Source of the DNA: Lentisphaerota bacterium
GTDB taxonomy: Bacteria > Verrucomicrobiota > Lentisphaeria > Victivallales > UBA1829
Reading direction: 5' to 3'
Length of the DNA stretch: 58,896 nt
Assembly (NCBI GenBank): GCA_015061565.1
Contig: SUWI01000003.1
Span: forward strand, 1-58,896
Under the pieces are notes generated by a model that was not told the origin of the DNA, ran no database searches, and saw nothing but the letters and a program-made list of their open reading frames with translations. A program made the position numbers and the translations under genes. Shown here piece by piece: positions 7,239 through 24,098 of this stretch (position 1 is the first letter of the stretch; each line of letters starts with the position of its first letter).

Positions 7239-9572
7239 ATGAAATTCCATTTTATTCTCGCGTTTCTTCTGCTTTCCGGAATGGTGCTTTCCGCCGCGGA
7301 AGTGGTCATCAAGCTTGGGGAAACCGCCATCGTCTACAAGGGAAGCGCGGCCAATAAACTTGCCGCGGAGGACCTGCAGAAACATCTGGAACTCATCACC
7401 TCCGAAAAGGTGGTTCTGGCAAAAGAACACGCCGTTCCCGCGGGAAAGACCTTTCTCATGAAAGTCGGATTCCTCCCGGATGGCGTTTCTGCCGACAAGT
7501 TCGCTCCTCAGGAGTCCCACTACCGCATCACCCCGGAAGGAGCTTATTTCTATGGAGGCAGGGACGGCGGCGCCTCCTTTGCTGTCTATGATTTTCTGGA
7601 AGACAGCCTGAACGTAAGATGGCCTTCCGGAGAGGATATTGCAGCTCCCCGGCAGAACCCTGTGCGGATCACCGTCACGCAAGGGGACTGGTATCCCAAA
7701 TTCACCCTGCGCAATATGCGCACCGGCGGCAGCAGAATGGGAAGCAAAAACCGCGCTGCCCAGTTGGCATGGAAACGCCGTCTGCGCAACTGCCGGGGCT
7801 CCGACTGGAACTTCGGCCCCGGAGACGCCTACTACGCCAAGTGGTGGAAAAAGTATGGCAAGGATCATCCCGAATACTTCGCCATGAACATCCAGGGCGT
7901 GAGAGGCCCTTCCCCCTCCCGGGTGCGGGGCGTGGCGGATACGGGAAACATTGCCGCCTATCAGGGAAAAGACATTCTGGTAGCCTTCTGCTGTACCAGT
8001 GAACCCTATCTGGATGCGGTGATCGCCCAATATGAAAAGATCGGCAAGCCCGTCTGGCTGAATTTCTGTCAGCCAGACGTCATGGATTACGAGTGCTGCT
8101 ACTGCGAAAAATGCCGGGCTCTGGACGGCTATCCCGTGAAGAAAGGGGAAAAATTCCACGGCAACCGCCTTTCCGACCGCTATGTATACATGCTCAACCG
8201 CCTTTATGAGAAAGCCGTAAAGATCCGGCCCGACGTGAAGATCATGTCGGAGATCTACAACTTCTCCCAGGAGCCCCCGGTGAGAACCAAGATCGCCGGA
8301 CCCGACAACTGCTGCTTCACCCTCTGCCCCACCGATTTTACACTGGAGGGGATCGATGCTCTGCTTGCCGGCTGGAACAAGGCGGGGATGCGTTTCTTCA
8401 CCCACCGCCCCAACCGTCACGGCTACTTCATCACCATCCTGCCCTGCGGGTATGAGGAGCATTTCTTCAAGATCCTGCAGAAGATGGTGAAAGCGGGCGC
8501 CGCCGGTTTCGACTATGACTGCGCCAATACGTTCCTGCAGAACGGTCAGTGGTTCTCCGACTACGTCCTTCTCAAAGCCATGCAGGAGCCGGAAAAGGAT
8601 TTCGCCTACTGGGAAAAACACTACATGCAGGCTTTCGCCCCGGCGCAGGAGGAGATCTCCGCCTACTACGGCTACTGGAGGAACGAGGTCTGGAACAAGC
8701 GTCTCGCGCAGAATGTGGGCAAGCTCCAGAAGGAGGGACGCTATTTCAATTTCGGCCGCGGACTGGTGTACAATCTCAAGACCTACTACGAGGAAAGCGA
8801 TTTTTCCAAAGCGGGAGAATTCCTCAAGAAGGCCCTGGAAAGAAAGGACCTTCCCGAGGACGTGAGAAAACGCATCGAAGCGCTCTCCGTTGACAACGAA
8901 CACCATCGTCTCACCTTCCTTGCCATCACCAAAAAGAGCGACGAAGCCTCCATAGCGCTGCGCAAATTCCGCATGAAACACAATTACGCGCTCTTCCCCT
9001 GGGCTGAACAGTACTGGGGAGACGTGTGCGGCCTCAAGAAGGTGGACGATCTCAAGGATTTCGATCCTCCCTTCAAGCGCACCCCCTCCTTCTGGTACTT
9101 CAAACTCGATCCCAAGGACGCAGGCGTCAAGGAGGAATGGTACAAACAGCGCTTCCGCAAGATCGCGAACTGGGGCAATCTTATGGCCACCAACAACTTC
9201 TGGGAGACTCCCCACAAGCACTATAAGGTCATCTCCCCGGAGATCCGGGCACAGACCGCCAATTACGACGGGATCGCCTGGTACGGCACGGCGCTGGACA
9301 ATTTCCCGCTGGACTGGAAGGGAAGAAGAGTCTTCCTCTATTTCGGCGCGGTGGATGAATCCTGCTGGATCTATGTGAACGGCAAAAAAGCGGGCGAGCA
9401 CCTTTTCGTGAAGCCCGACGACTGGAGATCGCCCTTCTCCATAGAGATCACCGACTGCATCGACTGGGATTCCCCCAGACAGGTGGTGGTCGTCCGCGTG
9501 GCAGACAAATCCGGTGGCGGCGGGATCTGGAAAGACGTGATGCTGGTTTCCAAACTCCCGGAGAAGAAGTAA
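7239..9572 (+). CDS. Secreted DUF4838-like protein with a C-terminal GH2-type sugar-binding domain
   Basis: Signal peptide, 'HPEYFAM' and 'LSDRYV'. C-terminal 'YDGIAWY...LYFGAVDE..WIYVNG...GGIWK' matches a GH2 N-terminal beta-sandwich. Confidence 0.7.
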   Translation: MKFHFILAFLLLSGMVLSAAEVVIKLGETAIVYKGSAANKLAAEDLQKHLELITSEKVVLAKEHAVPAGKTFLMKVGFLPDGVSADKFAPQESHYRITPEGAYFYGGRDGGASFAVYDFLEDSLNVRWPSGEDIAAPRQNPVRITVTQGDWYPKFTLRNMRTGGSRMGSKNRAAQLAWKRRLRNCRGSDWNFGPGDAYYAKWWKKYGKDHPEYFAMNIQGVRGPSPSRVRGVADTGNIAAYQGKDILVAFCCTSEPYLDAVIAQYEKIGKPVWLNFCQPDVMDYECCYCEKCRALDGYPVKKGEKFHGNRLSDRYVYMLNRLYEKAVKIRPDVKIMSEIYNFSQEPPVRTKIAGPDNCCFTLCPTDFTLEGIDALLAGWNKAGMRFFTHRPNRHGYFITILPCGYEEHFFKILQKMVKAGAAGFDYDCANTFLQNGQWFSDYVLLKAMQEPEKDFAYWEKHYMQAFAPAQEEISAYYGYWRNEVWNKRLAQNVGKLQKEGRYFNFGRGLVYNLKTYYEESDFSKAGEFLKKALERKDLPEDVRKRIEALSVDNEHHRLTFLAITKKSDEASIALRKFRMKHNYALFPWAEQYWGDVCGLKKVDDLKDFDPPFKRTPSFWYFKLDPKDAGVKEEWYKQRFRKIANWGNLMATNNFWETPHKHYKVISPEIRAQTANYDGIAWYGTALDNFPLDWKGRRVFLYFGAVDESCWIYVNGKKAGEHLFVKPDDWRSPFSIEITDCIDWDSPRQVVVVRVADKSGGGGIWKDVMLVSKLPEKK

Positions 9573-9769: not shown

Positions 9770-10753
9770 CTATCTGATGTCTTTGTATTGCCCATGATGC
9801 TGCTGGGAGACATTCTTCAGCAGCTCGGAATGCTGGCCCATGGAAATCGAATGGATCGTCAGTTTCGGAACTTCTTGTTTCAGAAAAGCCGTCAAAGATG
9901 CAGAGTTACAATCCTGAGGCTCACCGTCCGAAAGGAAATAGACGGACTGGATCCCTTCCGCTTTGATAATAGGAATGATAGCTTGCCAGGCACGCATCAT
10001 TTCGGTTCCGCCGCCCGGAGAAAGGGCCTTGACGAAATCAATTGCCTTAGCGACATCCTCCATGGATGAAAACCGGTATCCACGTGCGTTTTGATCGGGG
10101 ACCAAGCTGCAGCCGCTGGAAAAACAGACGATCCGGAAACGATCCGAGGTTTTTCTGGTTTGAGCATGTCGGTCCGCAAGAGTTTTTTCAACTTCTTTTT
10201 TAACCAATTCGAGGCGTGACATGCCGCTGTCGGAAGTGGAAGAAGCCATGGACCCGGAGACATCCAGCAGGAAAATGACCGATCCGGAGGCTTCGACGCC
10301 GAAAAAACCTGTCGAGGTCCCGGAACCGGAAGCATTGCCGGAATCCTTGCCGGCGAGGTTAATCGTTGCGATATTGTCGTTCGATTTATCTTTGCTGGCG
10401 ACGGGAAGTTTTCCGCTGCCGGAAGCATTGACATCCTTCGGTTCATTTTTACCCTGTCTGCTGTTGCTTCTGGCAATTGAAGAACCGGTTTTTTTGGCAG
10501 CTGCAGCTGCCTTGGCGTTGTTTCCGGAGCTGCCCGCGCCCTTGTCCGAACCCAGATCCCCCTGTCCTTTTCCGGAGCCGGAACCATGATCGCCGGAACC
10601 GGTGCCGCTGCCGTACTGTCCTGTACCGTTCCCGGCGCTGCCGGAACCGCCGCCTCCCTCAGGAATGAGCATAAAGCCCAACGCAATGATGACAGTCCAG
10701 AACAGGATAAAAATCAAATAACGGCAGCAGCATTTCTGGTTTTCAGTATTCAT
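9770..10753 (-). CDS. Membrane-anchored VWA domain protein with a Gly/Ser-rich linker
   Basis: N-terminal TM helix, GSG-rich linker and an intact MIDAS (DVSGS, GGT, LSDG). Confidence 0.85.
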   Translation of the reverse strand: MNTENQKCCCRYLIFILFWTVIIALGFMLIPEGGGGSGSAGNGTGQYGSGTGSGDHGSGSGKGQGDLGSDKGAGSSGNNAKAAAAAKKTGSSIARSNSRQGKNEPKDVNASGSGKLPVASKDKSNDNIATINLAGKDSGNASGSGTSTGFFGVEASGSVIFLLDVSGSMASSTSDSGMSRLELVKKEVEKTLADRHAQTRKTSDRFRIVCFSSGCSLVPDQNARGYRFSSMEDVAKAIDFVKALSPGGGTEMMRAWQAIIPIIKAEGIQSVYFLSDGEPQDCNSASLTAFLKQEVPKLTIHSISMGQHSELLKNVSQQHHGQYKDIR

Positions 10754-11678
10754 AGAATTTATCAGCCCGGTTGGCAAATTGGTATGCAAAAAAGTCTCTG
10801 TCATCCGGCTCCATCAGGAAACCGTGAAAGACATTCTGTTTTTTCAGGATTTCGCGCAGCCGGTAAAAATCCGGGGCATCACTCTTGCTGATGACGAATT
10901 CCGGGATCCGGCCGGCCGGCAATCCCTTCATGAAATTCCGGAATTCAGGAGCAAGTTCTTTGCCGGTAAAGATGCTGATGCCTTTTTCCGGGATCGGAGA
11001 ACAGAGAAAAGACCGGTCTTTGACCTGATAAGTCACGGCCGGATTAGGCGTGTAAGATTTCCCGTTGATTTCCGGTCCGACCGGCCAGATTTTTCCGTTG
11101 TTGACAAAAATAAAGTAGGGAATATCTTCTTTTTTGACCATTGTGACGAAAACCAGATTTTTCAGCTGGGCCGAACCGATTTTTTTGTTCAGGTCAGCCA
11201 GAATCGTTTTTTTCTTTTTGACCATGGCAAGAAGACCTTTAAGCTGCTTTTCCGTTTTTTGCTGATCTGCGACGGCTTTCATCGTCTGGACCTCCAGATT
11301 TTTCAGAATGCTGCGGCTTAAGTTCACTTTTTGAAGCGCCATTTTCTGCGAAAGCAGTTTTTCCCGATACATCCGTTCCATCAGGGCGATTTCATGGACG
11401 AGCCGGAGTCGGGGATCGGCTTTCATATTTTCCAATAACTTAGCCTGTTCATCGGTCTTTTTCATCAGTTCGTCGAGTTCATTTTGAAGCTTGGCGGCCT
11501 GCTGCCGGACGACTTCGATATTTTCGTTCTGATCGGGAACGGCATTCTTTTTTTCCAGACCCCGGATCGAGATCATGACGGTGAGCAGGATAGCGATGAA
11601 CATCACCCCGCCGAAAGTATTGCACATGGCGTCCAGCAGCAAATCGAGGCTGGATTCTTCAGAACGGCGCCGGCTCAT
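10743..11678 (-). CDS. ExbD/TolR/MotB-like single-pass protein with coiled coil (copy 2)
   Basis: Basic N-terminus, then a TM segment containing Asp ('SLDLLLDAMCNTFGGVMFIAIL'), a coiled coil and a small alpha/beta C-domain. Confidence 0.65.
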   Translation of the reverse strand: MSRRRSEESSLDLLLDAMCNTFGGVMFIAILLTVMISIRGLEKKNAVPDQNENIEVVRQQAAKLQNELDELMKKTDEQAKLLENMKADPRLRLVHEIALMERMYREKLLSQKMALQKVNLSRSILKNLEVQTMKAVADQQKTEKQLKGLLAMVKKKKTILADLNKKIGSAQLKNLVFVTMVKKEDIPYFIFVNNGKIWPVGPEINGKSYTPNPAVTYQVKDRSFLCSPIPEKGISIFTGKELAPEFRNFMKGLPAGRIPEFVISKSDAPDFYRLREILKKQNVFHGFLMEPDDRDFFAYQFANRADKFYEY

Positions 11679-12517
11679 TTCCGGACCTCCGCAGCAATGA
11701 GGGTCTGTTCATCCGGCAGGATCTCCCGTCCACGCTCGAATCCGGCTTTTTTCAGTGCTTCCGACAATGATTCACCGTAGGAAAAGGCGGAAGGTTTCAG
11801 GAGCAGGACAAAATAAACCCTTTCGGACGGAAAGGAACGGCAAAAAGCGAGGCAATCGGCATAGTTGTCGTTGACCATGGCAAAAGTTTTCCGGGGAAAG
11901 GATTTGTCGATGCTGTTTACGCTGATTTCAGTTCCGCTGCATTCGAGCAGGACAGGCTGTTTGGGATTATTTTTGTTCCAGACAAAACGGATCACGTTCC
12001 TGATCTTGTTAAACTGCTCTTCGCGATGTCTGATCTCATCATTCAACGCCGCGAGCTGTTTCTGCAGTTCGGAACTTCTGGATTGGTTTCTCGCTATGAG
12101 GATCTCGGATTTCTTTTTCCGATCGATCTGTTCTTTCTGAGCTTGCAGGACCAGGGCATTCTCTTCTTCCAGTTTCGGGATCGAATTATCGATCTGCTGC
12201 AATTGCCGGATCCATTTTTCTTTCAGTTCCGGAAGGGTTTCGATCCGGAGTTTCTTCAGCTCTTCGATGCGCCGGTTCTGTTCCGCCGCCTGCCGGCGGA
12301 GCTGCATCAGAACCTCCCGGATCTGTTTCATCTCTTTTTTGAGCGCCGTGAGTTCCGCCTGAATTTCCCGGTTTTTCTGCTGAACTTTCATGGGACCCTG
12401 CTGCAGGACCATCAGCACCAGCATGATGACGACCAGGAACATGATCCCGGTAATGCTGGTGATGATATCCTGAAAACTGAAAAAAGAAACTGCAGCAGAG
12501 TTGTCTTTGGAAGCCAT
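11675..12517 (-). CDS. ExbD/TolR/MotB-like single-pass protein with coiled coil (copy 1)
   Basis: TM segment 'FFSFQDIITSITGIMFLVVIML' with Asp at the stator-B position, followed by a long coiled coil. Lies directly after the ExbB-like gene. Confidence 0.7.
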   Translation of the reverse strand: MASKDNSAAVSFFSFQDIITSITGIMFLVVIMLVLMVLQQGPMKVQQKNREIQAELTALKKEMKQIREVLMQLRRQAAEQNRRIEELKKLRIETLPELKEKWIRQLQQIDNSIPKLEEENALVLQAQKEQIDRKKKSEILIARNQSRSSELQKQLAALNDEIRHREEQFNKIRNVIRFVWNKNNPKQPVLLECSGTEISVNSIDKSFPRKTFAMVNDNYADCLAFCRSFPSERVYFVLLLKPSAFSYGESLSEALKKAGFERGREILPDEQTLIAAEVRK

Positions 12518-12523
12518 AAAAAC

Positions 12524-13390
12524 TCAATCCCCGTCATCCTGAGCCAAATCAACACTTTTGATCCTGCTGATCAGATAGCGATGGCAATAATCGGAACACT
12601 CATCGAGGAAAAGTTCCTCCCGGTTGAGGACCCAGGTCATCAGCAGCTGGATGATCAAAGCCATGACCAGGGCGATCAAAGTGGTTTCAAAAGCGATGGA
12701 AAGGCCGCCGGTCACGTCGCCCAAGGCGGCGATCAGTTCCTGGGGATTGCCGGCGCCCTTGTCGATCACGGTACCGAAATTGCCGATCGCCTTGGCCAGC
12801 CCCAGCACGGTTCCGATAAAACCCAGCACGGGAATTGCCCAGATAAAACCTTTCAGGACCGTATAACTGCCGCTCAGATATTCGTCATCGTTCCTGGCCT
12901 GCGTATTGAGACATTCGGCGACGGCACTGACATTGCCGAGATTCTTCAAATTGACCAGGGCACGCTGGATCCGGTCAAGGAGGACAAAATCTTTCGGATT
13001 GCTGACCAGCAGGTTGATTTTTTCCAGGATGAGTCGGGCACTGGCACAGGTCAGCACAAAATTGCGGTCGTCCGGCAGCAAACTGAGTTCCAGCGCCTTA
13101 CGCTGGACATGAAGTTTCTGGATTTTGATCAGCAATATCGACAGTGCCCAGCTCCCCAGGAAAACGGTGAAATAGGGAATGGAAGACCGGTCTTTTTCGC
13201 CCCCGTGAAAAAACATATCCACGGCCCAGTGCTGTCCGCGGAAAAAGCTCAGGCTCAAATAAAACAGGGAAAAAATCACCACTCCTCCCAGAAAAGAAAA
13301 AAGGGAGTTGACATCCGTGAATTTTTTGCTTTTGAACCCGCAGATGCATTCGATATCGCTCAATTTTCGGGAAATCTGTTTCTGCTGCAT
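12524..13390 (-). CDS. MotA/TolQ/ExbB proton channel family protein
   Basis: 'AIPVLGFIGTVLGL' and 'GLSIAFETTLIAL' signature helices plus two N-terminal TMs. Alternative start at 13411. Confidence 0.92.
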   Translation of the reverse strand: MQQKQISRKLSDIECICGFKSKKFTDVNSLFSFLGGVVIFSLFYLSLSFFRGQHWAVDMFFHGGEKDRSSIPYFTVFLGSWALSILLIKIQKLHVQRKALELSLLPDDRNFVLTCASARLILEKINLLVSNPKDFVLLDRIQRALVNLKNLGNVSAVAECLNTQARNDDEYLSGSYTVLKGFIWAIPVLGFIGTVLGLAKAIGNFGTVIDKGAGNPQELIAALGDVTGGLSIAFETTLIALVMALIIQLLMTWVLNREELFLDECSDYCHRYLISRIKSVDLAQDDGD

Positions 13391-13407
13391 AAAACATCCT
13401 TTCATTT

Positions 13408-14355
13408 TCATATCAAAGTTTTAAATGAGTAAATAACCGAAATCAGGACTGGATTGAGAAAAAAGACGAGGGTGAACACGGGACCTTTCCAGGATCGTCC
13501 TCCGGCTTCCAGATAGTCGCGCAGCTGCATGGCGCAGCTGCACAGGGCCAGCGTATCGATGAAAACCAGAACGGCCTGCACCCAGACATGCTGAATGCCG
13601 TGAGCCAAAGCCAGAAAACAGCAGGCCAGAGTGCCGTAATTCATAAAAAGGCCGGCTGCGCAAATCTTCCATGACGATGAAATTTTATGTCCTGCGTCAG
13701 CACAACGTTTGGCGGCCAGCAGTCCGGTCAACCCGGCAACCGCCCCCAGTATGGACAGAAGACTCAGCCCCATCAGCGGAGATAAAAAGCAGTCGAACCG
13801 CTGACTGTAATACTTGCCGAACAGCAGAATGATGCCTGCGCCCAGAAGAAAATGGATCAAGGCGGCGATACTGTAATACCGGCCGGATTTGCCGGCATGG
13901 TCATGCAGTATTTCCTGAAAATCCCAGGGAAGCGCAATGGTCCTGCCGATATCCGCGATCAACTCACGCAAAGGGGATGATGCGGCCGGCGTCGGCTCAT
14001 CCTCAGACGGTTGAAACTGCAGCGTTCCCGACAGAGAAATTACCGGAGAAGCGACCGTGCCGGCCGGGTCGGGAGAAATAATGCTGCGGCTGGCAGGATC
14101 CCCGTTTTTTCCGGATCGGTCAGGAGCCGGAACGTGCGGCGGCTCCTCCGGGTTCAGGGCGATGGGCTTTCCCGGCGATAAAGCCGGGAAAAGGATGCTG
14201 ATATAGTTCCATTGGCGTTTGTCTCCGGAAACCATATCATCGCAAGTCAAGGTCCCGCGGTTGAACATGGCGGTCAACCTGAGCATGGAATAAGGTCCGG
14301 TGATTCGGCCCGCATGCCGGAGATAATATCTTTTTCCCGCAGTACTTGACATCAT
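13408..14355 (-). CDS. GYF_2 (DUF4339)-like domain protein with a Pro-rich linker and ~5 C-terminal TM helices
   Basis: 'YYLRHAGRITGPYSMLRLTAMFNRGTL..DDMVS....W', followed by a hydrophobic C-terminal half. Confidence 0.75.
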   Translation of the reverse strand: MMSSTAGKRYYLRHAGRITGPYSMLRLTAMFNRGTLTCDDMVSGDKRQWNYISILFPALSPGKPIALNPEEPPHVPAPDRSGKNGDPASRSIISPDPAGTVASPVISLSGTLQFQPSEDEPTPAASSPLRELIADIGRTIALPWDFQEILHDHAGKSGRYYSIAALIHFLLGAGIILLFGKYYSQRFDCFLSPLMGLSLLSILGAVAGLTGLLAAKRCADAGHKISSSWKICAAGLFMNYGTLACCFLALAHGIQHVWVQAVLVFIDTLALCSCAMQLRDYLEAGGRSWKGPVFTLVFFLNPVLISVIYSFKTLI

Positions 14356-14367
14356 ATCCCAGACTCC

Positions 14368-17300
14368 TTACAGCACCAGATCCGCAGGAAGGACAGCCGG
14401 TCTGACCTTCAGTTCGATATTCAGGCGCTGTGCCTCTTCCCGCCATTTCCGCAAAAATTCTCCCGTGCTCTGATTGTCTCCGTAACACCAGATCACCTGT
14501 CCGGCGAAAAGCCGTTTTTTCCACTTGTCATCTCTCGGGACTTCTCCCTTCCAGACTTTTTTCGGCAGGACGAAGACGGCATTATTCTCCAGAACAAGTC
14601 CCTCAACGGGGAGCTTGCAATCTTTGAAAAGATGGATCTTGACTTTGTTCTGTTCTGATTTCTGGACCACGCCGACCGGAATCAGAAGACGTGCATGCGC
14701 CTTGCAGATAAATCTGTCCCGGATTTCTCCGGCCTCCAGGAGCCGATTCAAATTTTCAAGAGTCCATTTCCGGTCGAATTGTCGTTTTTCCTCGCCGTAT
14801 TCGGCAGCGGCCTGCGGCGCCCGCCAGTTGCGTTGGGGAGTTTGCTTCAGTTCTTCCAAAGCAGCCGACAATTCCGGGTACAGGAGCGGTGAAGTATCAT
14901 ACAGTTCCTGCAGAAATTGCAGGAGCAGTGTTTTTTTCAGGTAGATATTTTCCACATTGCCTTTCTGGCAAATGAATCTCAAGGCCCCCTTCAGATTGGA
15001 AATCAGACCAGGACCATCGCCGTTCAAAGCATTATATTTCGAAGACAGGACCTGTCCCGGCCAGAAAGGCAGGCCGTCCTTGGGCAGGGGTGGTTTCTGC
15101 TGTCCATTCAGCGAAATAAAACCTTTGGGCAGTTCATACGGCAGATTCGGATGCCGGGTCGTGATCAGATAGGGCATCTCCGGATTTTTTTCATTGAATG
15201 AAATGATGAAACGGCTGTTTGTCTCATTGTCCACAGGAATGGGGACGAAGATTATATTGATCCGGCGGGGATGGCGCAAATATTCAACCTGTCCGTCCTT
15301 TTCATGGAAATAAAAATAAAACGGTCTGCGGTCCTTGTCGGCAAAGATGATTTCCTTTAGATCCTTATCCGTTTGAAGATCCTGGAAAAACTGGTCGAAA
15401 TTCTTGCTGCGTTCCATTTTGGGGCGGAATACACCCACATCGGTTTTGAAAAGGCCATCCGAGAAACCATTATTATCAGGAAATCCTTCCAGTCTTTCCG
15501 GGAAGTTTTTTTCGTAATTGTCCCGCTCATCCTTCCAGTTTTTGCAGAGGCGGAGCGGCAGGGAATAACGGATGGCCAAGTCGGGATGTTTATAACGGAT
15601 CTTTTCCAGATCCCGGATGAAATCATCAAAAGAAACCGGCGAATTGACCAGTCGGAAGGCATTCTCATTTTCCCAAGTCAATTCGAAACGTGTTTTGGAG
15701 GCCTGGTATTTTTTCTTTTCCTCGTCTTTCATAGACGGTATGATATAGCTGTAACGGCTGCTTTTCAGTTTCTCATCGAAATCATTTTGGCTTACCGCCA
15801 GGAGTGTTCTGAGGTCATTGAGTTTTTTCTGCGGGTCGCGGATCTGTTTGATCAGTTCTTCGACCTCGCCGCATTTTTTCCTGCAGAAAGCCAGAAACTC
15901 AGTTTCCCTCTGTTTTTTCAGTTCAGTGCGTTTCTGGATGATCTTAGTCTCCAAGCGGGTGAACTGATCCAGAGATTCTTTGCTCAGCAGTTCTTTGTCT
16001 TTCAATTTTTCTGCTTGCGACATGGCCAGATCCAACTGCCGGGCGTTATCGAGGATATCAGTTCCCGCCAGCCGCTCGATTTGCTGCAGCAGGCGCTTGA
16101 ATTCTTCCTCTTTCATTTTCTGATGATTGAGCATCTCCTCCTTCTGCTGTCTGGCAGCGGTATGGATCCGGATGATCTGGGGATCGGCTGCAACCTTCGA
16201 CGAGGCGGCCTTCAGTCCCCCATAAATCTTGATGACCTCGTCATACTTCCTGTTATCCAGAAGATCCTGCATATTGGCCAGGTTGCGTTTCACTGCAAGA
16301 TAGTGCTGCATATACCATATGGAAAAACCGATGGCGAGAGTCAGCAATACCGCGCCGCAAATGCCGTAGATACACCAGCGGACATGCCGCAAATGCTCCA
16401 GACGGTTATATTCCTCTTCAAGAGCTTTCAGCCGGTCGTCAAGGGCGGTCGGGATCAGATTGTCCATCAACTGCAGCTGGTTGTAATCACCAGCCACCTC
16501 GGAAAACGGCGCATTGTCTGCCAGTTTCTGTTCGATTTTCAGGATCAGTTCCTGACAAATCCGGTCATTCTTCCTCGTTTCGGCTTCCTGTTCAAGAAAC
16601 GATTCGATATCGGCGGCAGTCTGCCTTTGTTCATCGGACAGATTGATCACCGGGCTGGAGCAGAACATTTTCCATTTTTCAAATTCTTTTTCCAAACGGT
16701 CAATATCGCGTGCCTGGTAGCATTCCTGAAGCTGCGCCAGTTTGCTTTCGATCTCTTTGTTCAGTTTGGCCTGCTGCAGGGGCCGCAGTTTCTGCCGGAT
16801 AGCCGATTTAAGTTCCTCCTTGGGCGGGATCAGCCAATCCGGAGCCATGACTTCGCGGCACAGTTCCTCCAATCTGCTGCAGCAGTCCGAATATCCATCG
16901 ATTTCTTCGAGGTCATGTTCGATTTCCTGACAGCGGGAACGCTCCGCAGTGATCAGGTCATTGCGCCAGCGGGGGGAATTGGGCAGTTTCTGCAATATCT
17001 GGCGCAGCAGAGTGATACGCTGCAGCATGCTCCCGTTTCTGGCGATTTTCCGGTAATCCTGAAATAATGCGTGAAGACGTTTCTCTCCCGTGGAGATCGG
17101 GGCAATCAGCTGCTGGAGCAGCTGTTCATCGGGAAAAACCGGTGTTTCCAGGCCATATTCCTTGCAGATGGCAAAAAAGTCATTGGCCTTGAAATAAGCA
17201 AGCAGCTCTGCTTTCCGGGTCAGCGGCGGATCGAAAGAAAGGTTCAATTCCCGCGCAGCCTGGATGGAACCGTTTTCTATCAGCGTGCGGCACTGCTCCA

Positions 17301-17433
17301 AATTGGTATTCAATTCTTTGAAAGCCAGCAGACACGCCTTGTGCAGCTGGCGCAGATGCACACTGTCGGATAAATCGCCGCCTGCAATCAGCAGTTTTAT
17401 GCTTTCAACCGTATTTTCAACAGTATTACCCAT
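14368..17433 (-). CDS. Large (1021 aa) helical/coiled-coil single-pass membrane protein
   Basis: Long ORF with a central TM 'WCIYGICGAVLLTLAIGFSIWY'. Overlaps the upstream gene by 8 bp. Confidence 0.8.
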   Translation of the reverse strand: MGNTVENTVESIKLLIAGGDLSDSVHLRQLHKACLLAFKELNTNLEQCRTLIENGSIQAARELNLSFDPPLTRKAELLAYFKANDFFAICKEYGLETPVFPDEQLLQQLIAPISTGEKRLHALFQDYRKIARNGSMLQRITLLRQILQKLPNSPRWRNDLITAERSRCQEIEHDLEEIDGYSDCCSRLEELCREVMAPDWLIPPKEELKSAIRQKLRPLQQAKLNKEIESKLAQLQECYQARDIDRLEKEFEKWKMFCSSPVINLSDEQRQTAADIESFLEQEAETRKNDRICQELILKIEQKLADNAPFSEVAGDYNQLQLMDNLIPTALDDRLKALEEEYNRLEHLRHVRWCIYGICGAVLLTLAIGFSIWYMQHYLAVKRNLANMQDLLDNRKYDEVIKIYGGLKAASSKVAADPQIIRIHTAARQQKEEMLNHQKMKEEEFKRLLQQIERLAGTDILDNARQLDLAMSQAEKLKDKELLSKESLDQFTRLETKIIQKRTELKKQRETEFLAFCRKKCGEVEELIKQIRDPQKKLNDLRTLLAVSQNDFDEKLKSSRYSYIIPSMKDEEKKKYQASKTRFELTWENENAFRLVNSPVSFDDFIRDLEKIRYKHPDLAIRYSLPLRLCKNWKDERDNYEKNFPERLEGFPDNNGFSDGLFKTDVGVFRPKMERSKNFDQFFQDLQTDKDLKEIIFADKDRRPFYFYFHEKDGQVEYLRHPRRINIIFVPIPVDNETNSRFIISFNEKNPEMPYLITTRHPNLPYELPKGFISLNGQQKPPLPKDGLPFWPGQVLSSKYNALNGDGPGLISNLKGALRFICQKGNVENIYLKKTLLLQFLQELYDTSPLLYPELSAALEELKQTPQRNWRAPQAAAEYGEEKRQFDRKWTLENLNRLLEAGEIRDRFICKAHARLLIPVGVVQKSEQNKVKIHLFKDCKLPVEGLVLENNAVFVLPKKVWKGEVPRDDKWKKRLFAGQVIWCYGDNQSTGEFLRKWREEAQRLNIELKVRPAVLPADLVL

Positions 17434-20011
17434 TGACGTTTCTCCGGATTATTTTAACTTTTCTATTTTTCAGATCTTCCAGCCGTTCCTGTTCTGGAAT
17501 TTGCCTGTATATGCCAATGACATCCTCCAAACGCCGAGGTTCTTTGTTTTCCAAAATATGCTTGACTTTACGGAATAAAACTGGTGAACTTTTTTGCAGA
17601 ATCTCAATCAAATCACGGTTTTTCTTTTGAAACTCTTTACGGCTGATTTCATAATTTTTCCGGAGCTCAGCCAGTTGTTTCCGACAGCTGCTGCAAGCCT
17701 GGTATTTCTCTCTGAAATCATTATAGTCCCGAAGTATTTTCAGAGACATTTTATCCAGCTTTTCCTTCTTGGTCTCCGTCTGCAATATTTGCCTGATCCC
17801 ATCGATATGCAGCTTCCAGGCTTTTTCATCATCCAGCGGAGCGAGCCGTTTGGTTTCCTCCCATTTCGACTTGAGCTTTTCCTTTATTTGCGGCGGTGCT
17901 TCAATTACCAGTTCGGGTTCTTTCAGCTGCTGCCGGTTCTCGGTCTTGAATCTCTCTTCCTCTTTTTCCAGATTCACTAATTTATCCAGGGATTTATTCC
18001 GTTCTTCGGTCTTTCTGCTCAAAGGTGACTGGGATAATGTATGTAAAAGAATATCTCTTTGATCTATTTTGCCCAAACTGCGGTTATTGTTCGAAATCGT
18101 ATAAAATTCCCTGAATGTCCACAGATTATCTGAAACATGCAGATAAAACCAGAAATTATCCATCTCATCTTTTATTTCGATTTTGATTTCCTTGTTCAGT
18201 ATCCTTTCAATACATTCGGGGAGATTACCGGTATCGAAAGTAAAGCTCTCCCCCTTCTTTGATATGAATTCGATCTGGGAGATATCTTCTTTATGAGGGA
18301 CATTATTGCCCTTTTTCGAGGGCGGCTGGATGGTCAGGACACCGTCGGACAGTTGGATGATCATCTGGCCGGCTGGATCTTTATCCGGCAGCCGGTTCTG
18401 CTTGATTCCCGAAGTATCGACTCGGGATGAATAAACTGTAACGGATTTACCCGGGCTGGAAATGAAATCTTCCGGATTTTTAATATCTAACCCGCCAATG
18501 GAATGAAGGCTCAGTTCCATTTTTGCCGAATCCCGCAAAGCCATCGGCAATTTGATTCGTTTGCCGGAATAAAAACCGAGGTACAATTCAAAATAATCGC
18601 GGTCCGAGAGCCGGCCGAATTTTACTTTTGGAACTGCGGTATCCTTTTTTTGCGGCAATGCAGCTGCCGGTTTGGGATCCCTCAATTTGCGAGGCTGTTC
18701 ATGGAGAGGCTTTTCACGGGATTTCTTCGGTTTTTGCCGGGTTTCCGGCTGGGCTGTTCCCGATATGGGCGGAACACCGGCGGAGACCTTGCCGTCGGGG
18801 TGTTTTTTCCCTGCCTCAGCATTTTTCTCCGCCCTGATGCCTGCAGCCGGATTTGTTATTTCAACAATGTCCTCAGAACATCCATTATGATCATGCGGGT
18901 TTTCCGGTGGCAGATTTCCCGTAAAGATCCGCCAGGCCACCGCGGAAATCAAACCCAGGATCGCAGCACAGATAACCGTCAGTATCAGGATTTTTTTGAT
19001 TTTCTGACTGGACTGTTTTGCGTCAGGCGGGTTACTTTCCTCCTTAGCCTGCATCTCAGTTCGATCGATTGGATCCAGCCGTACCTGATCATGATCCGAA
19101 TCGGCGGCTTTTCCGTTCGGCTGCGGGTCCGTGATATCTTCGATCCGGGGGTCGGAAGGATCGGATGCCTCATCGGCGGCCTGGTTCTCCCGTTCCGGCA
19201 GGATTTCTTTCTCTTCCTGCCGAGACACTTTTGCCTGCCAGGAGGGGGGCAGGGGATTGCCGGTTCCCAGATAAATGACAGATTCCGGATCAAGCCGTTT
19301 GATGCTGCCCAGCTGGACCGAGTCTTTTACATAAGCACGTAAAAACAGCGGATTCGTCATCCGTGAAGAATAACAATACGTGGAAAAGGTGAAATGACGC
19401 AAATCCTCCTTGCTCATCCAAACTGCCATTTCCGCCGCCAGATCCAGCATATCGGCGCCGTTATGCTGAAGCGGGTCGAAGGAAAATGCAAACCCCTTTT
19501 CCGGATTGGAATGGAAACGATCTGCCAAATACTGGCCCCACCGGGGATCGCCGGCCAGTTTTTGCCACATGCTGCCTCCTTGCGGCAAAGGCCGGTGACA
19601 GACCTTTTCCTTCAGGGGAAGCAGCCGGGGTTCACCGCTCCACGGCGGAAAATTCTCCTCCGCCCGTAAAACCGAGACTGCTCCGCCCGGGATATCATCC
19701 AGTTCATCCGGCAAAAAGAGCAGATGATGGGCGATCACATTGCTCCTTCCGGTATAACTCAGTCCGGCATACGATATCCTGCTCAAAACCAGGTATGACG
19801 TCCGGCCCAGACGGAGCAGCTGACATGTAAAATTTACCGGATTGCTGTTTTCATGCTCCGTCCCCGGCGCAAAAAAGGGTTTATATCCGCTCAGATTTTC
19901 AACCGGAGCGATCAGATTCGGCGGAAATCCTTTCGTAAGAGCCACCGTGGTAAAACCGGACCGTCCGGTTATCAATCCGGTCGGGGTAGACGTATATACC
20001 AGCTCAAACAT
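17426..20011 (-). CDS. GAP1-N2-like (GTPase-associated protein 1) domain protein with a TM and large C-terminal region
   Basis: N-terminus 'ELVYTSTPTGLITGRSGFTTVA...VLSRISYAGLSYTGRSNVIAHH' and middle 'FTFSTY', as recalled for GAP1-N2/GAP1-M proteins. Directly follows a GTPase. AGGAG RBS. Confidence 0.75.
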   Translation of the reverse strand: MFELVYTSTPTGLITGRSGFTTVALTKGFPPNLIAPVENLSGYKPFFAPGTEHENSNPVNFTCQLLRLGRTSYLVLSRISYAGLSYTGRSNVIAHHLLFLPDELDDIPGGAVSVLRAEENFPPWSGEPRLLPLKEKVCHRPLPQGGSMWQKLAGDPRWGQYLADRFHSNPEKGFAFSFDPLQHNGADMLDLAAEMAVWMSKEDLRHFTFSTYCYSSRMTNPLFLRAYVKDSVQLGSIKRLDPESVIYLGTGNPLPPSWQAKVSRQEEKEILPERENQAADEASDPSDPRIEDITDPQPNGKAADSDHDQVRLDPIDRTEMQAKEESNPPDAKQSSQKIKKILILTVICAAILGLISAVAWRIFTGNLPPENPHDHNGCSEDIVEITNPAAGIRAEKNAEAGKKHPDGKVSAGVPPISGTAQPETRQKPKKSREKPLHEQPRKLRDPKPAAALPQKKDTAVPKVKFGRLSDRDYFELYLGFYSGKRIKLPMALRDSAKMELSLHSIGGLDIKNPEDFISSPGKSVTVYSSRVDTSGIKQNRLPDKDPAGQMIIQLSDGVLTIQPPSKKGNNVPHKEDISQIEFISKKGESFTFDTGNLPECIERILNKEIKIEIKDEMDNFWFYLHVSDNLWTFREFYTISNNNRSLGKIDQRDILLHTLSQSPLSRKTEERNKSLDKLVNLEKEEERFKTENRQQLKEPELVIEAPPQIKEKLKSKWEETKRLAPLDDEKAWKLHIDGIRQILQTETKKEKLDKMSLKILRDYNDFREKYQACSSCRKQLAELRKNYEISRKEFQKKNRDLIEILQKSSPVLFRKVKHILENKEPRRLEDVIGIYRQIPEQERLEDLKNRKVKIIRRNVNG

Positions 20012-20027
20012 GCGATGGCATCTCCTG

Positions 20028-21803
20028 TCACTTTACAGTTTTGCGGACATCGGGGAATCGGTATTTGCTGCCGTTCAATTCAATTTCAGCGCCGGCATAG
20101 CATATCGGCAGACGAATGATCTTGCCGTTAGCCGGATGCGTGAAAACGATCTTGTCTTTGATGATCTGACCCAGAATTGCAGTATTTGACGCAGGGCATT
20201 TTGCAACCGGGATCTGCTCATTCTGCGCGAGCAGAAGCAGGATCGGCACATCGACCCAGATCGGACTGATCTTTGCCGGCGTGACTCCTATGGTTCCATC
20301 GGTTTTCTGTTCGGCAAAAGTCCCGAAATTCGAAACGGGAATGAAAAAGACATTGTCAAAAAAACTTTCCGCTGCATTGACCAGACCGGGAACATAATTC
20401 AGCATCATTTCCCGGAGCGTATAGGACACTTGGTAAATATTGTCCATCGCCAGCAGATATTCCTCTTCGTCTTGCCACCCCTTGCGCTTGGTTATATAGG
20501 GGGTTTCCGTCATGTTCAGGGGAAATTTGTTCCTCCAGGTATCATATTTGCCTATTGCGATGACCAGAGGGATCTTGCAGGAATCGGAGCTGTGCATATT
20601 GGCATGCCGCCGGATCCGGTTGATCATTTCATTCAGCAGAATGGTCTGATCCACTGCCCGGGGATTCTTCGAAACCTGCGGATCGCGTTCATCGCAGAGG
20701 TCAAGCCGCATGGATGCATCATTGACCGGATCGAAGAGAAACACGATCCCGTTCGAGTGGGAAAGATGGAAAGTCGCCTGATTGACCCATTCGTCACGCC
20801 CGGGAATGAACATTTCTCCCGAGTTGTCATAAAAAATCATATTGAGATCGTTTTCATCGCCGTTCTGGCGAAAATCGAAGACAAAGGGTTTGGGCAATTC
20901 AATGTCTATATCGTCCAGGCGGATCCGGTCGGAAATGCCTTCCCCGGAGATCTGGGTCGCCGGCAATGAGGTGATCTCGTCCGGTTTCAATGACATGAAA
21001 AGCTGTTTTTCATAGGAATTCAGAGTCGCATTGAGTTCAGGATCCGCATCGAAAAAAGCTGCATCGAAATATTCCGGCAGGGTTTTCCGAAGCTGATGGG
21101 TCAGGCAGGTCAGAAAATAAGACTTTCCGCTCGAAGTCGCTCCCGCTATGGAAAAATAAAGGGAAGGCTTGTCCAGCAGTCCCGAAGGAATACGCAGATG
21201 ACAGCGGGGACAAGCCATTTCAGTCGCGGGCAGACCTCTTTCATCCAGCGGCTGGCCCATCTGATTGAATACCGTCGGCATAAACCTTTTTGGCGCATAT
21301 TCGCCCAGTATGGGATCCCCGTACAGGGAAGGATGGACTGATATGTAAAGAATGTAATCCTGATCAAAACTTTTCCAGCAATGAGGACACAGCAGATCCC
21401 CATCGGGGATGTCGCTGTCAAGGTCCACATAGGGAATGTTGGAAATAAATTCAGTTGTGGAATCCGCCCGGGGCGGAAGTTTGAATTTGATCCCGCACTT
21501 CGAACATTTGAATACGGTTGCCTTGAACAGATCTTCCGTAACGCTGTAGTGCTGGCCGCAATCCGGACAGGCTATCCGTATGCTCCCCCCGTTGCCGGAA
21601 CTGAGAAATTCTGCCGTTTTGATTTTCTGGTCAGGCTGATCGGCAAGGATTTTCCCGATCTTGAGGCATTGCCCGTCCTGCGGTCCGCCGGATATTTTGG
21701 CAAAAGAATCTTCCGAAATCGTCTTGCCCGAAACCATTTTCCGCAGTTGTTCCAGCGAAAAAGGTCCGACCTGCAAGCCGTCTTTGAATATGTAATAGTC
21801 CAT
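20028..21803 (-). CDS. TRAFAC-class GTPase (DO-GTPase-like) with N-terminal GYF_2 and zinc-ribbon domains
   Basis: G1 GATSSGKS, G2 PAT, G3 DNSGE, G4 GKYD, G5 VSNFG. N-terminal 'YYIFKDGLQVGPFSLEQL'. CxxC pairs CPDC/CSKC and CPHC/CPRC. Confidence 0.85.
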   Translation of the reverse strand: MDYYIFKDGLQVGPFSLEQLRKMVSGKTISEDSFAKISGGPQDGQCLKIGKILADQPDQKIKTAEFLSSGNGGSIRIACPDCGQHYSVTEDLFKATVFKCSKCGIKFKLPPRADSTTEFISNIPYVDLDSDIPDGDLLCPHCWKSFDQDYILYISVHPSLYGDPILGEYAPKRFMPTVFNQMGQPLDERGLPATEMACPRCHLRIPSGLLDKPSLYFSIAGATSSGKSYFLTCLTHQLRKTLPEYFDAAFFDADPELNATLNSYEKQLFMSLKPDEITSLPATQISGEGISDRIRLDDIDIELPKPFVFDFRQNGDENDLNMIFYDNSGEMFIPGRDEWVNQATFHLSHSNGIVFLFDPVNDASMRLDLCDERDPQVSKNPRAVDQTILLNEMINRIRRHANMHSSDSCKIPLVIAIGKYDTWRNKFPLNMTETPYITKRKGWQDEEEYLLAMDNIYQVSYTLREMMLNYVPGLVNAAESFFDNVFFIPVSNFGTFAEQKTDGTIGVTPAKISPIWVDVPILLLLAQNEQIPVAKCPASNTAILGQIIKDKIVFTHPANGKIIRLPICYAGAEIELNGSKYRFPDVRKTVK

Positions 21804-21818
21804 CTTGATAACGAAGCC

Positions 21819-22931
21819 TCAGTTATGGTTGTATTTCTGATATTCCGAAAGGGCGGTATCAAACCGTTTTTCCCAGTCAGGATTTCTGATCATCTGGAGC
21901 ACTTCCAGCATCGCATTGCCCCATTCCGGAAATTCACTGCGCGGTGATAAGGTCTGCGTCTTCCTCCAGGCGGTGTAACAGCTCGGCACAAAGGTGCGGT
22001 TCATATCTTTCAGATCTGACGGCGGCGCATATTCCCACTGGCCGTGCCGGTCCGGGAAAACCGTTTTGAAACTTTTTTCCCGATTCTGGTTGTCATTCCT
22101 GTTCTGGACATATTTTTCCCGGATTTCTTCCCCGATCTGTTTTATTTCTTCATTCAGTTCGTTCTTAAGTTCATTGCTGATGCCGGAATGGCGGATCGCC
22201 GCCACCGATATGTCCCAATATTTTGAATACAGACAAAATGCCAGAAAATAATTTTTCTGATTATCTGCCAGATTTTGGATGACCCGGATCGCATTTGCAT
22301 TTTTCAGGGAACCTTTCAACCCTTTTTCCAGCAGCATGTCCAGGGTGCCGGAATTGTTGTCCTCGGACGAGTTTTGAGGCGAATAAGGGCAGCTGCTCCG
22401 TCTGGACGCCGCTTGCTTGTTTGAACGGGCGTTCGACTTCGCCTTGGCCGCACGATACTGGGCAATATTTAGTCTTATGGCATTGTTAAACTTCTCCAAA
22501 TCCTTATAAAAGGAAAGTACCAGATTGGTGACTGGCGTATTCATTTTTTCTGCCAGTTTCCTGTACCCGTCCGATAATTTTCTTGCCTTGAAGCCGCTTT
22601 TGATATTCCAATATGCCAGTTCCATGGCCACTATCTCCGGAGTCAGTTCCGATTCGAGATAATTTAGTTTTGTGCAGGCTCCCAATTTCGGTTTGACATA
22701 ACAAATTGATCCGTTCCCACGGTAAGGCGTGCACTCCAGCAGAATTGCACCATCGTTTTCGCGAATTGCCTTTTGAAAAACCACAATGTCTCTTTTTATC
22801 GTTTTTCCATCCGAATATTCAGCATAAAGCAATTGCCCCGCATCATCAACGGTCAGAAATTCATCCGCAGCTGATAACCAGAAAAAAGAAAAAAAGAGCT
22901 GCATTATACAGAAAATAACTTTATGCCTCAT
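21819..22931 (-). CDS. Hypothetical secreted protein, first gene of the GTPase operon
   Basis: GAGGAG RBS and signal-peptide-like 'MRHKVIFCIMQLFFSFFWLSAA'. Ends 15 bp before the GTPase start. Confidence 0.75.
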   Translation of the reverse strand: MRHKVIFCIMQLFFSFFWLSAADEFLTVDDAGQLLYAEYSDGKTIKRDIVVFQKAIRENDGAILLECTPYRGNGSICYVKPKLGACTKLNYLESELTPEIVAMELAYWNIKSGFKARKLSDGYRKLAEKMNTPVTNLVLSFYKDLEKFNNAIRLNIAQYRAAKAKSNARSNKQAASRRSSCPYSPQNSSEDNNSGTLDMLLEKGLKGSLKNANAIRVIQNLADNQKNYFLAFCLYSKYWDISVAAIRHSGISNELKNELNEEIKQIGEEIREKYVQNRNDNQNREKSFKTVFPDRHGQWEYAPPSDLKDMNRTFVPSCYTAWRKTQTLSPRSEFPEWGNAMLEVLQMIRNPDWEKRFDTALSEYQKYNHN

Positions 22932-23228
22932 ACACTCCTCTCTGCAAAAATACGAATATTGCAACCGTTCCTGTTAACTTTTATATATAAAAATAACACA
23001 CCTTCTGTTAATTGCAAGCAAAGGTCTCTCGTAAAAATCGAAAAATGCCAGTGGAATGTCAAAATCCCGAAGGCGCATCTGGATGAGCTGAAACAGCAGA
23101 TCCAATTATTTATTCCGCCCGTGATCCAGCATGGATACGGATATATTGATACAAATGAATAATTAACCTTTTCAAAACTGAAGCGGATAATTGATGCTGG
23201 AGCTGTAGGCTCCAGCATCTGAAAACTC

Positions 23229-23781: not shown

Positions 23782-24098
23782 AACCTTCTCCTTTTGTTTG
23801 GGGTTCATTCAACAATATGGGCGTGCCATCAGAAATTTTCTGAAAAAAAACGTCTGGAATAACACCCGTATTATTTATCACCCCAAAAATCATTACGGGA
23901 AAGACAAGAAAACGGCAGGAATGACTGCAATGCCGATCCGACGTGGAAAACCTGCTGCCGTCGGACGTTTCGACTTCGATCTCGCCGCCGGCTGCGCCGC
24001 GCACCGTTCAGGACGGAAATCAGCAAGGTTCCCCAGGTCCGAAACCATTGACGGCAGTTTCATGCCATTAAGAAGGATCTCTGCCTGTGAAAATAGAT

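Follow-up and report, generated by a model that had tools for sequence, protein, structure and literature searches.

A predicted nine-gene operon in a 58,896-nt stretch of DNA from a Lentisphaerota bacterium (order Victivallales; contig SUWI01000003.1 of assembly GCA_015061565.1, positions 1 to 58,896 of the forward strand, called the window below) very probably represents one motor-coupled subtype of the GAP1-N2 'GTPase-centric' systems. The two proteins that define these systems, a DO-GTPase and a GAP1-N2 protein, are both encoded in the locus and make it a member. The GTPase core has already been described, by computational prediction, and no description of its pairing with an ion-driven motor of its own was found. 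The operon consists of nine minus-strand open reading frames (ORFs) within 9770-22964, numbered g1 to g9 in transcription order. The original prediction, made from the sequence letters of the window, had described nine co-oriented and tightly packed genes, which was confirmed with gaps of -62 to +16 bp (+15, +16, -8, +12, -4, +6, -4 and -62 bp for the successive junctions from g1 to g9); the overlap of g8 and g9 shrinks to about -11 bp if the second Met is taken as the start of g9. Its domain assignments also held by Pfam, hydropathy and family alignments. By hydropathy, g2 has no transmembrane (TM) segment, g1, g3, g4, g7, g8 and g9 have one each, g5 has five and g6 four.

Linkage of the GTPase core and the motor module

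Seventy-four genome loci were collected through an alignment of GAP1; the queries against their six-frame ORFs were the nine window proteins and iterated profiles built on these. Linkage counts were restricted to loci with enough sequence on the relevant side, and the window's own locus (L001) was excluded. The gene order 2-3-4-5-6-7-8 recurred in many Planctomycetota, among them the complete Planctomicrobium genomes behind L025 and L028, as well as in Lentisphaeria and Victivallaceae. Around the GAP1 gene, g2 was present in 59 of 63 loci and g4 in 53 of 55, and the motor genes followed with g6 in 36/49, g7 in 31/47 and g8 in 29/44. A reverse test started from g8: metagenome loci were obtained with an alignment of this protein, and 80 were kept of 454 relatives. 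Next to g8, g6 was found in 38/39 loci, g4 in 20/21 and g3 in 9/11; both loci in which g3 was missed (L112 and L127) have inserted genes that may place it beyond the flank. At the level of genomes, 32 of the 34 g8-positive members of the class were also GAP1-N2 positive versus 78 of 201 overall. A motor module without the GTPase core was almost never seen.

The linkage of the GTPase and GAP1 to the MotA-type subunit and its two Asp-bearing partners had been set in advance as the point on which the original prediction would fall, and it held across Lentisphaeria and Planctomycetota. An alternative, that two unrelated modules (GTPase/GAP1 and MotA/ExbD-like) merely lie next to each other in this genome, is therefore close to refuted: two-way linkage across two phyla, junctions that are tiny or overlapping, the GAP1-N2 genes of nearly all g8-positive genomes and the lack of any free-standing g6-g8 population among the loci seen all speak against it. 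Chance adjacency would account for the 13 of 49 GAP1-anchored loci without motor genes, for a metagenome locus (L089) that has g7-g8 with the other genes absent within 10 kb and for a locus (L106) with a permuted gene order.

Three sister PVC (Planctomycetes-Verrucomicrobia-Chlamydiae) loci carried a different partner. A 600-aa PilM/FtsA/MreB-like actin-fold protein stood in place of the MotA module at L057:11239-13038, L067:4123-5904 and L071:4727-6544, preceded in each case by a short GAP1 (~300 aa) and a g4 homologue. It appears that one and the same GTPase core can be combined with a motor or, alternatively, with a partner of the cytoskeletal type.

The GTPase, its GAP1-N2 partner and a helical protein

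The gene g2 (20028-21803) encodes a cytoplasmic 591-aa protein with a GYF - Zn-ribbon - Zn-ribbon - DO-GTPase2 architecture. Pfam matches covered the GYF_2 domain (residues 3-34, E=3.1e-6) and Zn-ribbons (residues 74-108), and a second four-Cys ribbon (C139, C142, C198 and C201) was invariant in 39 aligned homologues. The same alignment gave the invariants of a P-loop GTPase, namely G221, G226 and K227 (Walker A), D326, N327, G329 and E330 (Walker B with its Glu), and K419 and D421. DO-GTPases are distinguished by a Glu that follows the Gly of Walker B (PMC7159879). The DO-GTPase2 match of g2 itself was sub-threshold, at 17.9 bits versus a 27-bit cut-off, and 31/39 members of its family matched. 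GYF_2 (14/39) and FHA (5/39) alternate at the N-terminus of the family. The motif YDNxGE was found in 71 of 78 g2-family ORFs, the misses being mostly contig-end fragments, and a PDB sequence search with g2 gave Der/EngA (E=0.003).

Starting 16 bp past the end of g2, g3 (17426-20011) encodes an 861-aa protein with a GAP1-N2 domain (PF20013) at residues 3-130 (E=1.3e-21, 77.6 bits versus a 24-bit cut-off), a single TM helix at 341-359 and then about 500 further residues. GAP1-N2 matched 28/28 family members and GAP1-M 18/28. No GAP1-M match was obtained for g3 itself at E<=0.1, and Pfam likewise gave none for GAP1-C; conserved columns extend to about residue 255, and a GAP1-M region is probably present in the cytoplasmic part of the protein. 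The C-terminus is predicted to lie outside the cytoplasm, which fits the cadherin domains found past the TM helix in one family member. The gene is present in a single copy in the genome. Its public gene call is 714 aa long (83% coverage) versus the 861-aa ORF and by its length appears to lack the N-terminal ~147 residues. A call shortened in this way would be without the GAP1-N2 domain, and automatic annotation would consequently miss the family.

The third protein, g4 (14368-17433), is a mostly helical single-pass membrane protein of 1021 aa that belongs to an unannotated family. No Pfam family matched it. Its AlphaFold2 (AF2) model, with a mean predicted local distance difference test score (pLDDT) of 86.9, is helical over residues 1-350, has the TM helix near 354-372, continues helical to about 690 and ends in a mixed alpha/beta part; the model as a whole has two small beta regions. 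Foldseek returned only weak matches to TPR or helical-repeat proteins (best 2y4t_B, E=9.1e-4, TMq 0.07), and a Protein Atlas search with g4 and g1 gave no usable match. Homologues of g4 are only 13-39% identical to one another. In the PVC loci, g4 is the third constant partner of the GTPase/GAP1 pair. A core of GTPase, GAP1 and helical protein had been put forward as an instance of a known system, and the assignment stands as a GAP1-N2 system. A GASH identity of the helical protein is not supported, as 0/40 g4-family members matched GASH or fn3; a helical GASH partner defines the GAP1-N1 systems, and GAP1-N2 systems carry a rapidly evolving protein with fibronectin type III (FNIII) repeats (PMC7159879).

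The predicted motor subunits

The channel subunit g6 (12524-13411, 295 aa, four hydrophobic segments) belongs to the MotA/ExbB/TolQ family, with a Pfam MotA_ExbB (PF01618) match at E=4e-11 and 43.2 bits versus a 22.9-bit cut-off. An alignment of 33 family sequences had a mean column identity of 52% and contained the invariant segments WAIPVLGFIGTV and VTGGL..AFETT. Both channel helices were strongly conserved and the motif G[FL][IV]GT occurred in 87/90 g6-family ORFs. The nearest solved sequence was TolQ, a weak match (E=0.085). Also conserved in the family are a C-terminal tail on the cytoplasmic side, EEEFLDxCxxYCxRNIVSRLR, in which two Cys residues (C272 and C276) are nearly invariant, and an N-terminal LSWxxxDIE motif. 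We know of neither as a feature of ExbB, TolQ or MotA, and because they are unfamiliar from these proteins the tail and the LSWxxxDIE motif are candidate docking sites for the GTPase module.

Downstream of g6, g7 (11675-12517, 280 aa) and g8 (10743-11678, 311 aa) share a common plan: a TM helix at the N-terminus contains an invariant Asp and is followed by a long coiled coil and, at the C-terminus, by a domain of ~110 aa, which is a small alpha/beta domain in g7 and beta-rich or alpha/beta in g8. The two are paralogous (hhalign probability 99.5%, E=1.4e-22). Invariant positions of the g7 alignment were F13, F15, Q16, D17 and G24, and the FxFQD motif, situated where the TM helix meets the cytoplasm, was present in 93 of the 98 g7 ORFs that cover the N-terminus. 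Those of g8 were L15, D16, N20, G23 and G233, and LLLD..xN.FGG occurred in 111/113 ORFs. An AF2 model of g8 (pLDDT 83.5) consists of helices 10-40, 50-86 and 89-170 and a domain at 181-300. Foldseek of this model against the PDB gave 0 matches at E<=0.001, and the head domain is of no recognised fold; PDB sequence searches with g7 and g8 returned coiled-coil noise only.

Relatives of g8 are numerous, with 1121 representatives of clusters at 50% identity at E<=1e-30 among 1.84 billion proteins, and the best 150 are all ~300 aa long. The named homologues are all 'hypothetical' except for one that carries the Joint Genome Institute (JGI) label 'TolA-binding protein', and wherever a source taxon is named it falls within PVC (Lentisphaeria, Victivallales, Thermoguttaceae and Verrucomicrobiales). 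A predicted g7:g8 complex scored 0.57 versus 0.00 for the best of three controls, which weakly supports the pairing; at least 85% of contacts agreed between runs and the partner pLDDT was at least 76. In a benchmark, 58 of 80 solved complexes and 2 of 110 mismatched pairs came up to that mark, and among those that did, scores of 0.60 or less belonged to only 7 of the 80 complexes and to both mismatches; these counts apply only roughly to the g7:g8 prediction with its custom alignments.

Accessory proteins

Between the GTPase core and the motor lies g5 (13408-14355), with an N-terminal GYF domain, a Pro-rich linker and five hydrophobic segments. The window protein matched GYF_2 weakly (E=0.0015) and its family did so in 32/35 cases. 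The C-terminal modules of the family differ from member to member, with TM2 in three, trypsin in two and DUF805, RDD, PrsW and DUF4190 in one each; g5 is the variable slot of the system.

The last gene, g9 (9770-10804), encodes an N-terminal TM anchor (residues 29-47), a Gly/Ser-rich linker and a VWA domain (Pfam VWA_2 4.9e-8, VWA_3 1.3e-7 and VWA 2.3e-5) with a metal ion-dependent adhesion site (MIDAS) motif of the DxSxS type. This motif reads DVSGS in g9, and DxS[GA]S was found in 32/41 g9-family ORFs. The first gene, g1 (21819-22931), encodes a secreted protein of ~370 aa for which the ATG at 22931 gives the signal-peptide start; the ORF extends to a TTG at 22964, and a signal-like hydrophobic segment covers residues 16-34 of this long form. 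No Pfam, NCBIfam or PADLOC match was obtained for g1. Both genes had originally been counted as members of the unit, which was borne out in part. A VWA homologue followed g8 in 21 of the 42 g8-anchored loci with room for it, and in L112, L123 and L132 it stood between g6 and g7. Homologues of g1 were found in 9 of the 74 GAP1-anchored loci (L002-L010), all from close Lentisphaeria relatives, and in none beyond these.

The flanks of related loci were scanned in a random sample of 124 of 204 candidate ORFs, ORFs of more than 800 aa having been dropped. Trypsin-like peptidases may be an optional extra component since they recur in 6 of the 124. Six PADLOC 'RT-Protease_XI' matches in the flanks are probably the six Pfam trypsin ORFs, and a serine-protease motif located one of them, at L144. 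This is a 691-aa protein (L144:12158-14230, minus strand) with an N-terminal Zn-ribbon-like Cys pattern, and its gene is convergent and lies directly after the VWA gene.

Distribution and probable mobility of the operon

Across the class, g8 was present in 34/201 genomes, in 23/127 high-quality genomes and in 19/93 genera, and in a sample of Planctomycetota it was present in 8/201 genomes. Up to 11 candidates were scored per genome in these surveys, and prevalence is perhaps slightly underestimated. Presence varied within genera, including the host's own, where one of two other genomes was positive. Canonical ExbD was found in 41/41 genomes of the class. Flanks of the nine closest loci had nothing in common with those of the window or with each other. 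The patchy occurrence of g8, the ExbD found in all genomes examined, the low GC content of the block, the unconserved flanks and a transposase 3 kb upstream together indicate an accessory locus that is probably mobile. To judge from these comparisons, the block is one accessory, probably horizontally mobile operon that as far as seen is confined to PVC bacteria.

The host genome (5.45 Mb, 396 contigs, 85.6% complete) has canonical ExbB/ExbD pairs on other contigs, with six MotA_ExbB and two ExbD matches in all. The absence of TonB-dependent receptor, TolB/Pal and flagellar genes had been noted from the window, and for the families searched it was followed into the genome: no TonB-dependent receptor barrel, TonB_C or FliG_C was found in the assembly (TolB and flagellar families other than FliG_C were not searched), and the single OmpA-family match is on another contig.

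These data bear on the possibility that the operon is a lineage-specific device for envelope maintenance. In this reading it would be a paralogue resembling Tol-Pal or Ton, would power uptake or the upkeep of the outer membrane or cell wall, and would be regulated by the GTPase. Such a role would fit the MotA_ExbB domain of g6 and its weak proximity to TolQ, and the g8-model helices 50-86 and 89-170 would span ~12-17 nm by helix-length arithmetic, which is part of the periplasm. A genome without TonB_C or TonB-dependent barrels also means that its ExbB/ExbD-type motors must serve other partners. A housekeeping function would be near-universal, as ExbD is, and the distribution of g8 within the class and within the host's genus is far from that; canonical ExbB/ExbD pairs are already at hand on other contigs, and the low GC content and unconserved flanks point to an acquired accessory locus. 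We consider envelope maintenance improbable.

Composition and surroundings of the operon

The block had been described as more AT-rich than its flanks. Its GC content of 49.5% compares with 53.4% in the remainder of the window and 54.7% genome-wide and lies at the 4.8th percentile of 230 genome windows of equal size; the AT-richness is real but moderate. A putative leader or promoter region of g1 (22932-24126, minus strand) is AT-rich, with a GC content of 0.43-0.45 at 22-24 kb, and ends at a strong hairpin terminator (24099-24126) with a 12-bp stem of which 10 are GC pairs. The terminator closes an acetolactate decarboxylase gene upstream of g1, and between it and g1 lies ~1.1 kb of AT-rich DNA without conserved ORFs; two small ORFs there (22928-23239 and 23229-23606) had no Pfam match. 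Neither a promoter scan (16 versus 13.7±3.4 in shuffles) nor a terminator scan (26 versus 19.6±4.9) exceeded shuffled sequence, and the hairpin was the sole strong element.

Downstream of g9 is a convergent plus-strand gene for a DUF4838/GH2-type glycosidase (7239-9572). Glycan-degradation genes surround the operon on both sides (1-9572 and 28664-42142), among them DUF4838/GH2-like, GH4, GH123-like with a carbohydrate-binding module (CBM), rhamnosidase-like and CBM_4_9 proteins, and the same regions hold an AraC regulator and a prepilin-type N-methyl protein. A DDE transposase (25875-27512, minus strand) and a short RHS-repeat fragment (25122-25715, minus strand) are found 2-4 kb upstream of the operon, where the DNA is AT-rich. 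At a distance of about 24 kb, an AT-rich patch (46841-51167, GC 0.40-0.46) contains a tyrosine integrase (46841-48205, plus strand), a DUF4357 protein (48231-49238, minus strand) and a D5_N primase-like protein (49791-51167, plus strand), and is probably an integrated mobile element.

Proposed mechanism and role

The proteins suggest a GTPase-switched, ion-driven machine of the membrane. The cytoplasmic DO-GTPase2 (g2), the membrane-anchored GAP1-N2 partner (g3) and the large helical scaffold (g4) would form the core, with g5 as a GYF-plus-multi-TM adaptor or effector, and the membrane-anchored VWA protein (g9) and, in Lentisphaeria, the secreted g1 would complete the set. A g6 pentamer around a g7:g8 heterodimer would turn ion flow into rotation or pull, the membrane Asp residues of g7 and g8 binding and releasing the coupling ion as in ExbB5D2, TolQ5R2 and MotA5B2. 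A precedent for a heterodimeric axle is AglR5-AglQ-AglS (PMC11761067). The stalks (the helices 50-86 and 89-170 of the g8 model) and heads would act on or sense the ectodomains of g3 and g4 as well as g9 and g1. On the cytoplasmic side, the GTP or GDP state of g2, set by GAP1, would decide on the assembly or engagement of the complex, and g2 would dock at the membrane through GAP1 and g4. The GYF or FHA modules of g2 and g5 may recognise linkers that are Pro-rich or carry phospho-Thr, of the kind present in g3 and g5, and the GYF domain of GltJ with the Pro-rich sequence of AglZ provides a measured parallel (PMC11135422).

The role that we tentatively favour, at somewhat below an even chance, is that of an envelope-surveillance or conflict device which is Zorya-like in its logic. 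A disturbance of the envelope would be sensed by the periplasmic VWA/stalk assembly and passed to the GTPase as a threshold switch, and the output would occur at the membrane, as an ion leak through the motor or through TM or protease modules of the g5 type. This reading draws on the patchiness and mobility of the locus, the diversification of the fifth gene slot and of the GTPase N-terminus, the fast evolution of g4 and the prediction of GAP1-N2 GTPase-centric systems as mobile, membrane-acting conflict systems (PMC7159879).

A number of results pull the other way. The 13 motor-less GAP1-anchored loci, together with a complete genome (G202) that has genes 2-3-4-5 and no g8 anywhere, indicate that the GTPase core can work without the motor. 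For the motor, g7 and g8 are not demonstrably homologues of ExbD, TolR or MotB: neither matched Pfam PF02472 or OmpA, sub-threshold matches were unrelated to ExbD, an hhalign comparison with 31 ExbD sequences from within the class yielded probabilities of 0.3% (g7) and 2.3% (g8), and Foldseek gave none for the g8 model. The 5:2 model consequently draws on the MotA_ExbB domain, on the invariant Asp and on analogy. As regards the conflict role, searches of the nine proteins with Pfam, PADLOC and NCBIfam revealed no toxic effector of a recognisable kind (nuclease, NADase or pore-former family). Defence had been one of the functions originally proposed, and the PADLOC check lent it little: on the nine proteins it returned only a weak ZorA2 match for g6 (E=3.1e-4, 17.9 bits) and coiled-coil noise. 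The flanks of related loci were not defence islands either, as the sampled ORFs (124, with 147 Pfam families) were not enriched in defence genes, with one restriction endonuclease and one E1-E2-like protein, and the recurrent families were ordinary (the six trypsin-like peptidases and three to five TPR proteins). A search of IMG/VR viral contigs gave no relative of g8, nor did one of PLSDB plasmids give any of g3.

The lack of a defence-island context would fit a non-immune role, such as that of a force transducer like the Agl-Glt machinery of Myxococcus. In such a machine the GTPase would control an ion-driven, trans-envelope complex that moves or exposes a VWA adhesin or cargo, serving adhesion, surface movement or export, and by analogy with MglA in the focal-adhesion complex it would mark where and when the motor engages. 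The part-by-part parallels are extensive. One TolQ-like pentamer with two different TolR-like subunits (AglQ/AglS) corresponds to g6 with g7/g8, MglA/MglB to the DO-GTPase and GAP1, the modules of GltJ and GltG to the GYF and Zn-ribbon (ZnR) domains of g2 and g5 and the FHA domain of some GTPase homologues, the TPR or helical scaffolds GltD/E/I to g4, and the adhesin CglB to the VWA protein with its MIDAS motif; the PilM/FtsA/MreB-like protein in the motor-less L057, L067 and L071 parallels the Agl-Glt link to MreB. No homology between the corresponding parts emerged, and the GTPase is a DO-GTPase2 and not Ras-like. No Roadblock/MglB, GltA/B/H-type barrel or TonB_C turned up, the operon encodes no outer-membrane component, and the VWA protein sits on an N-terminal TM helix and is not an outer-membrane lipoprotein. 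Variation within genera and unconserved flanks would also be unusual for a motility or adhesion organelle. The conflict device and the force transducer both fit the data; we give the force transducer somewhat lower odds than the conflict device and far more weight than envelope maintenance.

We give even odds to a broader statement, in which the operon would represent a new class of ion-driven 5:2 machine with a g7/g8 heterodimer of a new family as its axle and under the control of a TRAFAC GTPase and GAP1. Such a machine would be an independent PVC counterpart of the Agl-Glt motor or of the Zorya sensor, with a core that works alternatively with an actin-like (PilM/FtsA-type) module.

To our knowledge, only a handful of uses of MotA/ExbB-type motors are known, namely flagella, Ton, Tol, gliding with type 9 secretion, and Zorya. 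Each earlier use opened a field. Here a compact, self-contained operon ties such a motor to a nucleotide switch, which makes the activation of a 5:2 motor and the target on which it pulls testable with eight or nine genes. The operon also contributes three sizeable unannotated protein families (g4, g7/g8 and g1) and, for the GAP1-N2 GTPase systems, until now a matter of computational prediction only, a first point of access to their function. If the role in defence is true, PVC bacteria, about whose phages almost nothing is known to us, would have a GTPase-gated membrane motor as a further means of immunity. If the role is instead adhesion or force, the logic of the bacterial 'focal adhesion' would have been invented a second time, independently.

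Comparison with known systems

The original prediction knew of no experimental description of this combination. None of the GTPase/GAP1 plus motor pairing was found in the literature search, in which PMC7159879 was the only relevant paper on GAP1-N2; figures and supplements may still bear on novelty. The available text of a 2025 survey of MotAB relatives contains no GTPase link and does not mention Lentisphaerae (PMC12505986). An Akkermansia mucin-utilisation locus was considered as a candidate and set aside, as the text available for it gives pili and periplasmic complexes only and nothing that ties it to this system (PMC12418764).

The closest relatives are the GAP1-N2 systems themselves (PMC7159879). 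Common to both are a DO-GTPase with the Walker B Glu and N-terminal Zn-ribbons, a downstream GAP1-N2 protein with a C-terminal TM helix, many membrane components, an occurrence in planctomycetes and verrucomicrobia and mobile, patchy neighbourhoods. A linked planctomycete protein in which GYF is fused to trypsin or to a TM-rich region matches g5. The three N2 themes that have been described are tubulin, HSP70/GrpE/DnaJ and kinase/PP2C (PMC7159879). The present operon differs in that no fn3 match was found in its nine proteins, the place of the FNIII-repeat protein being taken by the unannotated, helical, single-pass g4, and in its dedicated motor. The main text of PMC7159879 does not contain the terms MotA, ExbB, TolQ, 'proton channel' or 'lentisphaer', although its figures and supplements may list such neighbourhoods.

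Zorya is an anti-phage system in which a ZorAB motor is combined with ZorC/D, ZorE or ZorF/G, ZorA having a long C-terminal tail and ZorB a peptidoglycan-binding domain. Shared with it are a MotA-family channel and a single-pass partner bearing an Asp, in a use other than motility or uptake, as well as an accessory and patchy occurrence and the idea of an envelope motor that reports to cytoplasmic components. In contrast, g6 at 295 aa is without a long ZorA-type tail, no OmpA-type peptidoglycan-binding domain is present and the partners are a GTPase and GAP1 rather than nucleases or helicases. PADLOC gave weak matches only (the ZorA2 match of g6 and ZorB1 at E=0.037 for g7) and no ZorC, D, E, F or G.

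With ExbB-ExbD-TonB and TolQ-TolR-TolA the operon shares a MotA_ExbB channel whose single-pass partner has an Asp in the membrane, and a mode of action that spans the periplasm. It differs in having two paralogous partners, each ~280-310 aa in length and composed of a long coiled coil and a C-terminal domain without a recognised fold, in the absence of TonB, TolA, TolB and Pal from the operon and in being accessory, with canonical ExbB/ExbD elsewhere in the genome.

The Agl-Glt machinery comprises the GTPase MglA with MglB as its GAP, GltJ with a ZnR-linker-GYF arrangement, GltG with FHA, the scaffolds GltD/E/I and a link to MreB (PMC11135422, PMC11761067), and its VWA adhesin is CglB (PMC9946355). 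It has in common with the operon one TolQ-like and two different TolR-like subunits, a GTPase with a GAP, ZnR/GYF/FHA adaptors, helical scaffolds and a distal VWA protein. The GTPase is of another family, outer-membrane barrels and the TonB-like C-termini of GltG and GltJ are absent here, g7 and g8 have no detectable TolR/ExbD homology, the VWA protein is in the inner membrane and an operon of 8-9 genes compares with at least 17 proteins. A GYF-then-ZnR order has been reported to occur in the PVC clade, where such modules are probably switches with other partners, and the available text of that report does not mention the system itself (PMC11135422). By membership the locus is not Zorya, Ton, Tol or Agl-Glt, and it is plausible by analogy that it works like one of them.

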